A stretch of DNA of 7,336 nt, from the IMG/VR virus record IMGVR_UViG_2541047844_000003; one strand, 5' to 3'. Source of the DNA: a virus (taxonomy: Duplodnaviria > Heunggongvirae > Uroviricota > Caudoviricetes). A program made the translations under genes and the position numbers. Positions 3,353-7,336 of the stretch are shown piece after piece (within the stretch, counting starts at the first letter, position 1; each line of letters starts with the position of its first letter). The notes under the pieces are model-generated. The model ran no database searches and had not been told where the DNA came from. It was given only the letters and a program-made list of their open reading frames with translations.

Positions 3353-4435
3353 TTAGAACTGGTAAACCAGACCTACAGCAACGATGTCATCAGTATCAAT
3401 ACCAGCTGTTTTGGTAAACTTACTATCGTCAATTAAGTTGATTTTGTAATCAACAAAAGTGGACATGTTTTTATTAAAGTAGTAAGTAGCACCGACATCG
3501 ACATACTTGACTAAGTCTCGGTCACCATGAACACCAAGGTCTTTACCTTTTGACTGAAGGTAAGCAACAGATGGGCGCAGACCGAAGTCAAACTGATATT
3601 GTGCTACTGCTTCAAAGTTTTGTGCTTTGTTTGCAATATGGTTATTACCAAAAACGGTCATATTCTGAGTTTCAGAATATGTGGTAGCCAGATAGATATT
3701 GTTCGCATCATATTTCAGGCCTGCAGCCCATACTTCCGCATTTTTGCCGGAGGCATTGAATTTGCTCTTACCATAGGCGACCTGACCGTCAGTGCGATCT
3801 GATTTAGCATAGGTTGCACCCACGCCGAATCCTTCATACTCATAAGTAGTGGAGAAACCGAAACCATCACCATTGGCTTCAGTTACGTCAGTGCGGTCAT
3901 TTTTACCCTGATACTGAGCAGCAAAGTTCAGGCCATCGACCAGACCAAAGAAGTCGTTGTTACGATAAGTTGCAACACCAGTAGTGCGACCAGTCATGAA
4001 CACATCTGTTTGGGTCCAGGTATCACCACCGAATTCTGGCAGGACGTCAGTCCACGCACCGATGTCGTATGCTACACCGTAGTTACGGCCGTAATCGATT
4101 GAGCCGTAATCACCAAATTTCAGGCCTGCAAATGCAAGACGGGTTTTGTCTTTGGAAGAACCTTGAGATTCAGCGCGGTTGCCTTTGAATTCATATTCCC
4201 ACTGACCGAAACCAGTCAGTTGATCGTTGATTTGGGTTTCACCTTTGAAGCCAAGACGGGCATAAGTAGTATCACCATCATCTGCATCATTAGAGGAGAA
4301 GTAGTGCTTAGCATTAACTTTCCCGTACAGATCCAGCTTGTTACTGTCTTTATTATAAATTTCAGCTGCCTGAGCAGACATCGCCATCAGTACTGATGCA
4401 GCTACAGCAGAAATTGCCACTGTTAATTTTTTCAT
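3353..4435 (-). CDS. nmpC: outer-membrane general porin, OmpC/OmpF/PhoE family (NmpC / Lc-type prophage porin), 360 aa, apparently intact
   Basis: Signal peptide [23 protein letters not shown] followed by AEIYNKD; porin-typical Gly/Tyr/Asp-rich beta-strand sequence; C-terminal ...VGLVYQF ending in Phe, typical of beta-barrel outer-membrane proteins. Opposite orientation between Q and the lysis genes, as in DLP12 and phage PA-2. Confidence 0.9.
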
Positions 4436-4645
4436 CGTGAGCCCTTTTTTTTGAACTATTATTAAAAAATGATGTCACTGCGCGATAAATATTCATCTAA
4501 TCAATGTGATTATTTCAAGATGTAAGTTTTGGTTTCTCGTTTAATTTGTGAAGTAGATCTCTATTTTTATCTGAACTTTTTTCTATCGAATCCTATTCAT
4601 GGCTCTTGGCTGAATAAAAATAAATCTATTAGCCAATTTATATTA

Positions 4646-4674
4646 ATGGCTGTTATTTATAAGTGCTCTATAAT
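4646..4674 (+). promoter_or_regulatory. candidate late-promoter (PR'-like) -10 element
   Basis: Perfect TATAAT at 4669-4674 with a poor -35 (ATGGCT at 4646-4651, 17-nt spacer), about 190 nt upstream of the terminator at 4864-4896. Flanked by inverted 9-mers AGCCAATTT (4631-4639) and AAATTGGCT (4690-4698). Speculative. Confidence 0.2.
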
Positions 4675-4863
4675 TTGAAGGTTCAATTTAAATTGGCTAA
4701 AAATAACGCTGGAAATTATTTGTTGGTTATTTGTTGAGATTTGCTTATGTATTTGTAGTGGTGTTTTCAATACTCGGTAGCATTCTCGCAAATATCATTT
4801 AGTGGTTTACGTACGTAAAAAATTGGTTATGCTGTTAAGAGTGGTTACTTCGTCACACAGCTT

Positions 4864-4896
4864 AAACCCGCCGTCGAGCGGGTTTTTCCATTTTTT
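4864..4896 (+). terminator. rho-independent terminator upstream of the lysis cassette (tR'-like)
   Basis: AAACCCGC (4864-4871) / GCGGGTTT (4878-4885) stem with loop CGTCGA, followed by TTCCATTTTTT. About 110 nt before the essD start. Confidence 0.55.
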
Positions 4897-5008
4897 GAGT
4901 CTCGATATTAGCTGATAACCCAATACCTGAGTTATTCACTGACTCCGAGTCTGTTACGTTTCGTAGTATTCCCTCAATTTACACCCGCTTTGTCTGCGAG
5001 GTGGGGTT

Positions 5009-5224
5009 ATGAAATCCATGGATAAGTTAACAACGGGTGTCGCCTATGGCACCTCAGCAGGTAGTGCCGGGTACTGGTTTTTACAGCTGCTCGATAAAGT
5101 CACGCCCTCACAGTGGGCAGCAATAGGTGTGCTGGGTAGCCTGGTATTTGGCCTGCTGACGTACCTGACAAACCTTTATTTCAAGATTAAAGAAGATAAG
5201 CGCAAGGCTGCGAGAGGTGAATAA
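5009..5224 (+). CDS. essD: class II holin (phage 21 S-type pinholin) with dual-start motif, 71 aa
   Basis: Product [71 protein letters not shown] matches S21 as recalled. Two in-frame starts (ATG 5009 and ATG 5018, Met1-Lys-Ser-Met4). Two hydrophobic segments and a basic C-terminus. GAGGTG upstream. Confidence 0.9.
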
Positions 5225-6185: not shown

Positions 6186-6358
6186 TAGCGATAATTTTAC
6201 TCATCATCCTTCACATCTGGCTCTGTAGACAGGGTGGTGCTCACTTCTGGAGTGAATCCAGATTAAACATCTCATTGCTGATGCTTGATATTGAGCATTT
6301 TGCGCGCGGTAAGGGGCTGCGTTGAGATAAGAGCCAGTCATTACAAATACCAGGATTT

Positions 6359-6385
6359 AGCCTCGCATTCGCGGGGCTTTTTATT
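6359..6385 (+). terminator. candidate rho-independent terminator after the lysis cassette
   Basis: Stem AGCCTCGC (6359-6366) / GCGGGGCT (6371-6378) with one G-U wobble, loop ATTC, followed by TTTTATT (6379-6385). Confidence 0.45.
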
Positions 6386-6394
6386 GCCATTACA

Positions 6395-6420
6395 AAAGCC
6401 ACTTCCTACAGAGTGGCTTT
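6395..6420. terminator. perfect 9-bp inverted-repeat hairpin, possible bidirectional terminator
   Basis: AAAGCCACT (6395-6403) / AGTGGCTTT (6412-6420) with an 8-nt loop; T-rich 3' flank on both strands. Confidence 0.35.
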
Positions 6421-6676
6421 GATAATGGCTTATACCCTACACGGGATAACTTAACTGATATCCCTTTTAAAGGATAAAGGTATTCAAGCCTGACACATCA
6501 TGCGCTGTATCGTCGCCGTATTCCCGTATTAACAGAGACCGTAGCCCGACGGGGAACTCCTTCTGCGCGAGTGTGCGGGAATAATCAATAACGATGCACA
6601 CCGGGGTTACCGGGTACACATATTTCATCATGCCAGCGAGTCCGGTTCTGGCACGGAAGAAACCGGACGTTATGAT

Positions 6677-7087
6677 TTAGTGCGGAAATATTTGTGTAGT
6701 GTTCTGAATGTTCTCAGTAAAGAGTAATGAATTATCAAAGGTATAGTAATACCTTTTGTTTTCGTGGATATTTGTAATCCATCTGAAAACCCCTGCTGTA
6801 GCAAGATTTTTCCTGTATTCGTAAAATGATAACTCTCCTGATTTGAATCCTTTTAAGGTGGCTTCTATAAGGCATTTATTTTTTGAAAATCTTACATTTA
6901 CAACCTTACTCTGTCCTTTTATTAAAACCGTATTATCGTTTTCAAGAACAAGATGAATATTCTCTGTGGCTAAATAGTAAATGTAATGTGAGACATTGTG
7001 ACGTTTTAGTTCAGAATAAAACCAGTGATAGTTTAAATTATTTCGCACTTTATCGAATATTTGTTTAAAAATGGCAACCTGAGCCAT
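6677..7087 (-). CDS. ybcV: DUF1398-family protein (YbcV-like), 136 aa, function unknown
   Basis: Product [58 protein letters not shown]... matches DLP12 YbcV as recalled. ATG at 7087 preferred over the track's 7102 because GGAAGG lies about 8 nt upstream. The gene is markedly AT-rich. Confidence 0.8.
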
Positions 7088-7091
7088 TGTA

Positions 7092-7117
7092 GTACCTTCC
7101 ATGTGATATGAAGGTAC
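7092..7117 (-). promoter_or_regulatory. 8-bp perfect inverted repeat overlapping the ybcV ribosome-binding site; possible operator or RBS-sequestering hairpin
   Basis: GTACCTTC (7092-7099) / GAAGGTAC (7110-7117) with a 10-nt spacer. In the minus-strand mRNA the arm CCTTC can pair with the GGAAGG Shine-Dalgarno of ybcV. Confidence 0.3.
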
Positions 7118-7144
7118 CTAGTCTGCACGATTATCTAAATTGCT

Positions 7145-7336
7145 TCAATCTGGTCTGACCTGCTTTCTGAGCAATTCAGTAATGTCACTCTTTTCTTTGT
7201 TTGCTTCAGGCGAAACTCTTTTTTCTGAGCACAGTCTTCGGCGGCAGGCTTCAATGACCCAGGCTGAGAAATTCCCAGACCCTTTTTGCTCAAGAGCGAT
7301 GTTAATTTGTTCAATCATTTGGTTAGGAAAGCGGAT
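7145..7336 (-). CDS. partial ORF (5' end beyond the window) with ribbon-helix-helix-like (Arc/CopG-type) features
   Basis: Minus-strand frame open from the window edge: IRFPNQMIEQINIALEQKGSGNFSAWVIEACRRRLCSEKRVSPEANKEKSDITELLRKQVRPD, stop at 7145-7147. The pattern of a short strand (IRFP), a helix, G-S-G-N, then a second helix resembles the Arc repressor fold. Ends 57 bp upstream of ybcV on the same strand. Confidence 0.45.
   Translation of the reverse strand: MRFPNQMIEQINIALEQKGSGNFSAWVIEACRRRLCSEKRVSPEANKEKSDITELLRKQVRPD

Follow-up and report, generated by a model that had tools for sequence, protein, structure and literature searches.

A minority-allele hairpin ahead of the DUF1398 gene in an annotated ynfO-DUF1398 pair of lambda-like Escherichia coli prophages

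At the end of a 7,336-nucleotide stretch of tailed-phage DNA (the window, meaning throughout the whole stretch that was analysed), a small open reading frame is followed on the same strand by an AT-rich gene, and an inverted repeat lies between the two, over the ribosome-binding site of the second. This layout raises the question of whether the two genes form a regulated unit in which the repeat serves as an operator for the first gene product or as a hairpin that gates translation of the second. The account that we consider likely is a different one: an annotated accessory pair, in which the DUF1398 gene has a leader of its own and the repeat is a hairpin of a minority haplotype that should lower translation.

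The 7.3-kb window comes from the late region and right end of an E. coli prophage that is lambda-like (DLP12-type). It carries rusA, ylcG, quuD, an ompC/nmpC-type porin gene on the minus strand, essD, rrrD and Rz/Rz1, after which two minus-strand genes, ynfO (DUF3950) and a DUF1398 gene, close it (Table 1). Positions 6400-7336 are 100% identical to a chromosomal locus of E. coli 118UI (L001), where cos and the Nu1/terminase genes come directly after, divergent from ynfO. The region can be viewed as a cos-proximal accessory block, with the lysis cassette on one side and cos/Nu1 on the other, that would be read antisense to the late operon. The pair is of the ydfO/ybcV type and is already annotated at the cos-proximal end of E. 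coli lambda-like prophages, RefSeq naming its products "YlcI/YnfO family protein" and "DUF1398 family protein". As a standard, already named prophage feature present in thousands of E. coli genomes, the pair in itself matters little.

Table 1. Features of the ynfO-DUF1398 region, in window coordinates
Feature	Position	Strand	Basis or remark
DUF1398 family gene (ydfO/ybcV-type)	6677..7087	-	136 aa plus stop, 31% GC
Second predicted hairpin, 6 bp, AAUGGC / GCCAUU, includes the start codon	7070..7088	-	minimum-energy folds
Spacer/leader, ynfO to DUF1398 gene	7088..7144	-	57 nt, read from the sequence
Predicted hairpin, mRNA 3' arm GAAGGUAC	7092..7099	-	overlaps the Shine-Dalgarno; invariant in all alleles
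Predicted hairpin, mRNA 5' arm GUACCUUC	7110..7117	-	variable, derived arm (allele tables)
ynfO 3' part (YlcI/YnfO family, DUF3950), codons 15-77 plus TGA	7145..7336	-	PF13132, NF041551, L001
Palindrome GGTCTGACC, PdhR-type box core (GGTnnnACC)	7152..7160	.	pattern search, leader alignment

The downstream gene encodes a protein that matches the Pfam DUF1398 profile over its full length (PF07166, positions 1-119 of 119; E = 6.5e-43; 146 bits, above the gathering score of 22) as well as the solved structure of YdfO (PDB 2HH8; E = 2e-67). Its RefSeq CDS in E. coli 118UI is WP_000079510.1 (136 aa), annotated with the start at ATG 7087. This start is favoured because leaders of the lambda/DLP12 type have the upstream ATG (7102) in another frame. 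The first-pass annotation had called the gene ybcV, but the protein lies about as far from YdfO as from YbcV of K-12 (76-78% identity). The AT-richness noted there is real: GC content is 31.1% in the DUF1398 CDS, compared with 44.4% in full-length ynfO and 44.7% in the window. No toxin or defence family was matched by the protein in Pfam, which returned DUF1398 alone, in NCBIfam or, at significant scores, in PADLOC, and its AF2 model (pLDDT 52) was too poor for a fold search. A scan of genome contigs for distant DUF1398 loci returned Escherichia/Shigella loci only, plus some 30 contaminant lambda right-end contigs filed under unrelated taxa. Published information on the family consists of expression data, and we found no functional studies of DUF1398 or DUF3950. 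The ydfO mRNA is strongly induced by ionic liquid (PMC4077768), ydfO is among the genes that change upon DicC induction (PMC11430063), and overexpression of YdfO is cited by Frederix et al. (PMC4077768) for greater resistance to oxidative stress rather than for toxicity.

The upstream reading frame is incomplete only because the window edge cuts it. Extending the sequence into the identical locus of E. coli 118UI yields a complete 77-aa ynfO (positions 4746-4979 of that locus), which starts 42 nt past the end of the window and stops at TGA 7147-7145. A 13-bp inverted repeat is present 70-100 bp ahead of this ynfO, at 5049-5081 of the same locus. Its product scores above the curated cut-offs of both PF13132 (DUF3950; E = 1.9e-21, 76.1 bits, cut-off 25) and NCBIfam NF041551 (36.7 bits, cut-off 30), and the RefSeq product name agrees with its assignment to the YlcI/YnfO family. 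The family is very small: at 50% identity, 1.84 billion proteins contain just 117 representatives of it. Its conserved core consists of [KR]-x-I-R-F-P, a helix, a loop ending in N-F-S, and A-W-V-I-E-A-C. A profile built from the family alignment retrieved two PDB chains only, 9kkd (CopG family) and 6sbw (CdbA), both ribbon-helix-helix (RHH) proteins, matched in register with an E-value of about 0.5. Aligned with hhalign to hand-typed Arc/Mnt/CopG/ParD-type sequences, YnfO matched in register with P = 0.009, and a weak match to a HicB-like PHROG family was also obtained (E = 0.009). Among 40 family members, one matched a Pfam RHH model (E = 0.09). The AF2 monomer of YnfO (pLDDT 65) has an extended N-terminus followed by helices at residues 19-31 and 33-52, and a Foldseek search of this model against the PDB gave zero matches. 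Taken together, YnfO may well be a small ribbon-helix-helix DNA binder, the RHH fold being the most probable one. The Arc/CopG-like pattern reported for this frame from the sequence alone is, thus, plausible as an RHH fold, albeit with weak scores and an empty structural search.

As originally described, the upstream frame ends 57 nt before the DUF1398 start. The spacer is in frame with both genes, and this allele adds an in-frame TAG at 7120-7118. Fused reading frames of 233 aa (a cluster of 761 member sequences) were rejected as real fusions, being gene-caller read-through of the ynfO TGA; they arise with callers that treat TGA as sense, in alleles without the TAG. The co-oriented layout was found at 86 fetched loci, many of which are the same contigs fetched twice, and the adjacency of the two genes is recurrent and probably ancestral. 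The terminator scan found none between ynfO and the DUF1398 gene, and the two are presumably co-transcribed. The proposed two-gene unit, thus, stands as a recurrent co-oriented layout, like that of ynfO-ydfO in Qin, but not as an obligate pairing, as the genes separate both ways. The DUF1398 gene occurs with the same leader, without a DUF3950 gene in the flank, at three loci (L087, L088 and L119) and in phage Tritos (L255). Conversely, DUF3950 is present without DUF1398 at four loci (L003, L004, L252 and L253), those of phages BP-4795, ev207, Stx2_EH2201 and JLK-2012. Among 50,697 phage records, a YnfO-like protein was detected in 155 and a DUF1398 protein in 43, so most phages with DUF3950 are without DUF1398. 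One further locus had looked like a divergent conserved pair, with ynfO preceding a "49%-identical paralogue"; it was discarded as a frameshifted, decayed copy of the Qin genes.

The inverted repeat itself was confirmed: its 8-bp arms, GTACCTTC at 7092-7099 and GAAGGTAC at 7110-7117, are perfectly complementary and stand 10 nt apart. Its 3' arm in the mRNA overlaps the Shine-Dalgarno sequence GGAAGG at 7100-7095, 7 nt ahead of the AUG. Such repeats are common in the window: inverted-repeat pairs of 8 nt or longer number 38, and there are seven distinct perfect repeats of the hairpin type (8 bp, loops between 3 and 12 nt). When every combination of arm and loop is counted, also those nested in others, the hairpin class reaches 11, compared with 1.26 expected from Markov simulations. 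Taken alone, the inverted repeat is unremarkable. The Rfam scan gave sub-threshold chance matches only, all outside the ynfO/DUF1398 region.

The repeat differs between alleles of the locus. The 5' arm differs from the common CGCCCC(C) allele at 7118, 7116, 7115 and 7112. Of 76 IMG/VR loci with DUF1398 proteins identical at 99% or more, most have CGCCCC, CGCCCCC or CACCCC in this arm; the GGTACCT of the window was present in nine and GGTACCC in five. In a pattern-matched sample of 120 IMG/VR leaders, eight had the perfect repeat, six had it with one mismatch and 106 (88%) were without it. Across 5,426 complete E. coli genomes, 133 out of 2,695 leader-bearing records (about 5%) matched the 70-nt window leader with at least 99% identity; another 897 records belonged to the same paralogue type at 90-95%, and the leaders sampled in that band were without the repeat. 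It is also absent from the leaders of Qin, DLP12, lambda and the L087 and L088 loci. Qin, DLP12, lambda and two further architectures read ACTACGC[GC]CC[CA]TC[GA]TATCACATGGAAGGTTT. Because the perfect and one-mismatch alleles carry one private synonymous ynfO variant in common, they represent one haplotype. Whether or not an allele has the repeat, the N-terminus of YnfO, presumed to read DNA, is identical. A repeat limited to certain alleles, an invariant arm holding the Shine-Dalgarno and an unchanged YnfO N-terminus together exclude a conserved operator or riboregulator; the suggestion that the repeat is an operator for YnfO is, accordingly, not supported. The repeat is a minority-allele hairpin, that is, a strain-level polymorphism and not a conserved control element.

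How the repeat arose can be approached from the substitutions. Complementarity between the arms is 5/9 in the common, ancestral form and 8/9 in the derived one, and all three substitutions within the arm turn a mismatch into a match. Three clustered changes in the upstream arm would, therefore, have made a quasi-palindrome perfect. Templated mutation of this kind, in which strand switching corrects imperfect inverted repeats, is known from E. coli genetics. The cluster has the signature of either such a templated event or lineage-specific selection, and quasi-palindrome correction is, in the light of known E. coli mutational mechanisms, the most likely origin. The existence of the intermediate allele GGTACCC implies that more than one step, or recombination, was needed.

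Folding predictions indicate what this polymorphism may do. The 80-nt leader folds at -19.6 kcal/mol in the window allele compared with -10.3 and -10.9 kcal/mol in the common alleles (z = -2.07 for the window leader; 7 out of 200 shuffles fold as well). The Shine-Dalgarno is computed to be unpaired with a probability of 0.12 in the window allele, 0.36-0.48 in common window-type alleles, 0.49 in Qin and 0.71 in lambda. The mRNA of the window allele would fold into a hairpin of nine pairs that exceeds the structures of other alleles in stability by about 9 kcal/mol. This hairpin would bury the Shine-Dalgarno, and translation of DUF1398 should then fall. Judging from these models, the window allele is probably a low-translation variant, in this strain only. 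The idea of a hairpin occluding the ribosome-binding site is, thus, retained as a prediction for this allele, but not as a conserved riboregulator. With the ynfO stop 26 nt ahead of the stem, a ribosome that terminates there would be too distant to open it. The second predicted hairpin (Table 1) appears in the minimum-energy folds of both window-type and lambda-type leaders.

The conserved element upstream of DUF1398 genes is a PdhR-type box, not the flagged repeat. The block common to all DUF1398 architectures starts at GGTCAGACC (7152-7160), over the stop region of ynfO. On this alignment, the DUF1398 gene would have a conserved leader to itself, about 80 nt long and extending from GGTCAGACC to the GGAAGG ribosome-binding site, a leader that persists where ynfO is split by an insertion or missing. 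At its start, a palindrome that overlaps the last ynfO codons conforms to the PdhR box (AATTGGTnnnACCAATT) in having the core GGTnnnACC upstream of the gene, and it agrees with the consensus at 9 out of 14 positions when counted by eye; the orthologous K-12 sites are listed with 10/14 (PMC7660256). The core motif occurs four times in the window against 0.94 expected, a count matched by 1 out of 200 shuffles; the porin gene contains three of these occurrences. The box is polymorphic, reading GATCAGACC in 73 and GGTTAGACC in 24 of 237 fetched copies. Genomic SELEX (gSELEX) lists this very sequence as a PdhR site of K-12, both between ynfO and ydfO (AAcaGGTcagACCAgaT) and in the ybcV/ybcW spacer, and ybcV mRNA is down 10-fold in a pdhR deletion mutant; the evidence comprises gSELEX and RT-qPCR for ybcV/ybcW and gSELEX only for ynfO-ydfO (PMC7660256). 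By analogy with these published sites, host PdhR may act on the DUF1398 gene in this strain as well. A minus-strand scan for consensus promoters found none for ynfO or the DUF1398 gene. A GATAAT in the spacer was rejected as a promoter element, since its distance to the PdhR box and ribosome-binding site is not conserved (assessed by eye).

Several other explanations of the locus were weighed. The first-pass annotation compared the layout to antitoxin-toxin or regulator-effector modules, a comparison contradicted, as regards an obligate module, by the finding that ynfO and DUF1398 part in both directions. A looser version, in which YnfO is an RHH regulator dedicated to DUF1398, with the repeat at 7092-7117 serving as its operator or as a hairpin designed to gate the ribosome-binding site, would suit the adjacent, co-oriented genes with a terminator-free interval, the RHH-like pattern of YnfO and the predicted burial of the Shine-Dalgarno. 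However, the repeat is missing in about 88-95% of related leaders and in all of the more distant ones, the residues of the YnfO N-terminal strand and helix are the same with or without it, and the DUF1398 leader is unchanged after the ybcW insertion splits ynfO or where ynfO is absent, which makes this version improbable. We hold it to be more improbable still that the pair is a type II toxin-antitoxin system with YnfO as RHH antitoxin and DUF1398 as toxin. A small RHH-like protein encoded ahead of an uncharacterised one of 136 aa, the weak HicB-like PHROG match and the mobile-element setting all accord with such a system, but each gene also occurs alone, known toxin and defence models (Pfam, NCBIfam, PADLOC) are unmatched by either protein, ybcV remains intact in lambda/DLP12 where a 630-bp insertion splits the pair, and the reported effect of YdfO overexpression is increased oxidative-stress resistance (Frederix et al., PMC4077768). 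Hardly credible at all is a hairpin that parts the ynfO and DUF1398 transcripts as an intrinsic terminator or processing site: a stable stem does sit between the two frames, but the bases that follow it are ACUACAAUGG, without a U-tract, the minus-strand terminator scan is empty at this position and most alleles are without the stem.

The annotated pair with a strain-level hairpin, thus, remains the preferred reading, and two other proposals were considered beside it. The hairpin could be a genuine regulatory device, selected within this lineage. The three mismatch-correcting changes together with the intermediate allele would fit selection, and a templated origin leaves the fourth clustered change, C to G at 7118, unexplained by the other arm. 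The other proposal is that YlcI/YnfO proteins have their function at the cos/terminase end of the phage, where they might bind packaging-site or terminase-region DNA, for instance, with DUF1398 as a passenger inserted downstream. In the architectures examined, the DUF3950 gene always adjoins, divergently, Nu1/nohA/nohD or an HNH-TerS gene, with or without DUF1398; DUF3950 is recorded in more phages than DUF1398 (155 against 43 records); and two DUF3950 representatives are fused to the N-terminal DNA-binding part of Terminase_2. One of these fusions was traced to a complete 120-aa gene in satellite-like islands with integrase and primase. Its identification with the redirecting-packaging protein Rpp of PICIs was rejected, as Rpp has a winged-helix fold like that of lambda TerS (PMC6739421). 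The constant packaging-module neighbour and the fusions suggest, as a lead only, that DUF3950 is linked to the phage cos end rather than to DUF1398. On the other side, adjacency may merely mark where accessory genes are tolerated, and the different fold of Rpp from E. coli PICIs (PMC6739421) offers no parallel, so we regard the link, drawn from sequence comparisons, as unlikely though worth pursuing. Doubtful to a similar degree is the combined proposal that YlcI/YnfO proteins are RHH binders of the cos/terminase end of lambda-like phages and satellites and that, separately, the hairpin is a selected, lineage-specific translational brake born of quasi-palindrome correction. If true, YlcI/YnfO proteins could influence packaging-site recognition or expression around cos.

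The modest interest of the locus lies in three of its aspects. It is a clean natural case in which clustered substitutions have perfected an imperfect palindrome and in which the outcome for translation can be predicted. The PdhR-type box would link DUF1398 accessory genes to host pyruvate sensing. The association of DUF3950 with packaging modules and satellites provides a testable starting point for an uncharacterised family.

Comparison with known systems places each component of the locus. RHH proteins of the Arc/MetJ/CopG type, including the antitoxins HicB-C, ParD and RelB, have a pattern like the strand-helix-loop-helix of YnfO, in which an IRFP strand, a helix, a G-x-x-F-S loop and a second helix lie in register with solved RHH proteins. 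Unlike these regulators and antitoxins, YnfO scores below significance, has no obligate partner gene and belongs to a tiny family. As in leaders whose hairpins sequester the Shine-Dalgarno, the 3' arm of a stable stem here contains that sequence; unlike in those leaders, the stem is without conservation or covariation across homologues. The substitutions resemble quasi-palindrome correction in falling within 7 nt on a near-identical background and in fixing all three internal mismatches, and differ from a simple case in that the change at 7118 is not templated.

The closest relatives of the whole arrangement are the K-12 prophages and lambda. In Qin, ynfO-ydfO has the same families, order and strand, a spacer of about equal length and the same position beside nohA/cos. 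Qin YnfO is 97-99% identical to window-type YnfO, the DUF1398 protein (YdfO) only about 76%, and the Qin leader reads ACGCCCCCTC...GGAAGGTTT, without the inverted repeat. Homologous DUF3950 and DUF1398 genes are found in ylcI-ybcW-ybcV of DLP12 and at the right end of lambda (p78, p79 and a ylcI-like ORF). These two also lack the repeat, and they carry bor, which is absent here. In both, a ~630-bp block takes the place of ynfO codons 56-72 and carries ybcW in the opposite orientation, and the last five ynfO codons and the conserved leader, from GGTCAGACC to the ribosome-binding site, still precede ybcV/p78 as they precede the DUF1398 gene here.

The stop codon of ynfO, a TGA, and the start of the DUF1398 gene lie 60 nt apart in a common reading frame (window 7088-7147). 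In alleles carrying a 14-nt C-rich arm, this TGA is the only separator of the two ORFs, and the 233-aa fusion represented by P0014 (761 member sequences) arises where gene callers take it as a sense codon. The window allele has an additional stop between the two ORFs, a TAG at 7120-7118. The spacer also differs among loci in the length of its C-run, which ranges from 4 to 7 C.

A different type of fusion was found in integrase/D5-primase satellite-like islands, where a 60-aa DUF3950 gene adjoins the gene of a 120-aa protein, P0329 (locus L248, 3590-4363; also L249-L251). In P0329, DUF3950 is fused with Terminase_2 positions 1-53, the part through which the small terminase subunit binds DNA. 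Another representative protein, P0303, shows the same DUF3950-Terminase_2 fusion.

Several further repeats and predicted hairpins were detected around the two genes and at the end of the lysis cassette.

Repeats and predicted hairpins in the window and in the E. coli 118UI chromosomal locus (L001)
Feature	Location	Arms	Position and properties
Terminator-like hairpin	window 6359-6378, + strand		with T-run; closes the lysis cassette
Inverted repeat	window 6386-6403 / 6412-6429	18 nt	89% complementary; after the terminator-like hairpin
Stem	window 6641-6669	8 bp, GTCCGGTT...AACCGGAC	directly downstream of the DUF1398 stop codon
Predicted start-codon hairpin	window 7070-7088	6 bp, AAUGGC / GCCAUU	encloses the DUF1398 start codon; second hairpin beside the 7092-7117 repeat
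Inverted repeat	L001 5049-5081, outside the window	13 nt, ATCAATTAATACG / CGTCATAATTGAT	85% complementary; arms 7 nt apart

The start-codon hairpin is present in the minimum-energy folds of window-type and lambda-type leaders alike. On the minus strand, the stem beyond the DUF1398 gene is not followed by a U-tract, and the T-rich tail that it has on the plus strand is weak; it may mark the end of a transcript or work bidirectionally. The first-pass annotation noted that the DUF1398 gene is far more AT-rich than its surroundings. Within the window, AT content is highest at 4350-4950 (28-35% GC), upstream of the ompC/nmpC-type porin gene, and foreign composition is, therefore, not confined to the DUF1398 gene. 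Window 6326-6676 carries no RefSeq annotation and lacks bor, which lambda and DLP12 have at that place.

DUF1398 proteins are named 'head protein' in PHROG 413 and 'putative envelope protein' in older records, labels for which we found no experimental basis. The Campylobacter phage CJLB-4 record (MW057783.1, 48.4 kb) gave a DUF1398 match identical to that of lambda (tblastn, 76.3% identity to the query, equal score), and judging from this match the record may be lambda itself. Contigs of ~3.5 kb filed under unrelated taxa, including Kitasatospora, Brevibacillus, Flavobacterium and Arcanobacterium hippocoleae, match the right end of lambda (S/R/Rz/bor/p78/p79/ylcI) at 98.8-100% identity (loci L099, L101, L102, L107, L109, L123 and about 25 others). 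Their source is almost certainly the control DNA supplied with nanopore kits, a 3.6-kb piece of lambda. The protein database also contains hundreds of error-ridden ORFs originating in contigs of about 3.5 kb, probably because they share this source. The A. hippocoleae copy is recorded as 'plasmid unnamed1' (CP136411.1), and a lambda-right-end contig was presented as a plasmid in one paper (PMC11171008).

The perfect 8-bp repeat overlapping the DUF1398 Shine-Dalgarno (7092-7117) had been proposed as a possible operator for the upstream protein. As a candidate YnfO operator, the 13-nt inverted repeat of L001 is to be preferred. It precedes the start of ynfO by 70-100 bp, with cos on its other side. 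It is absent from Stx-type DUF3950 loci and kept in lambda, DLP12, Qin and phage ev207.
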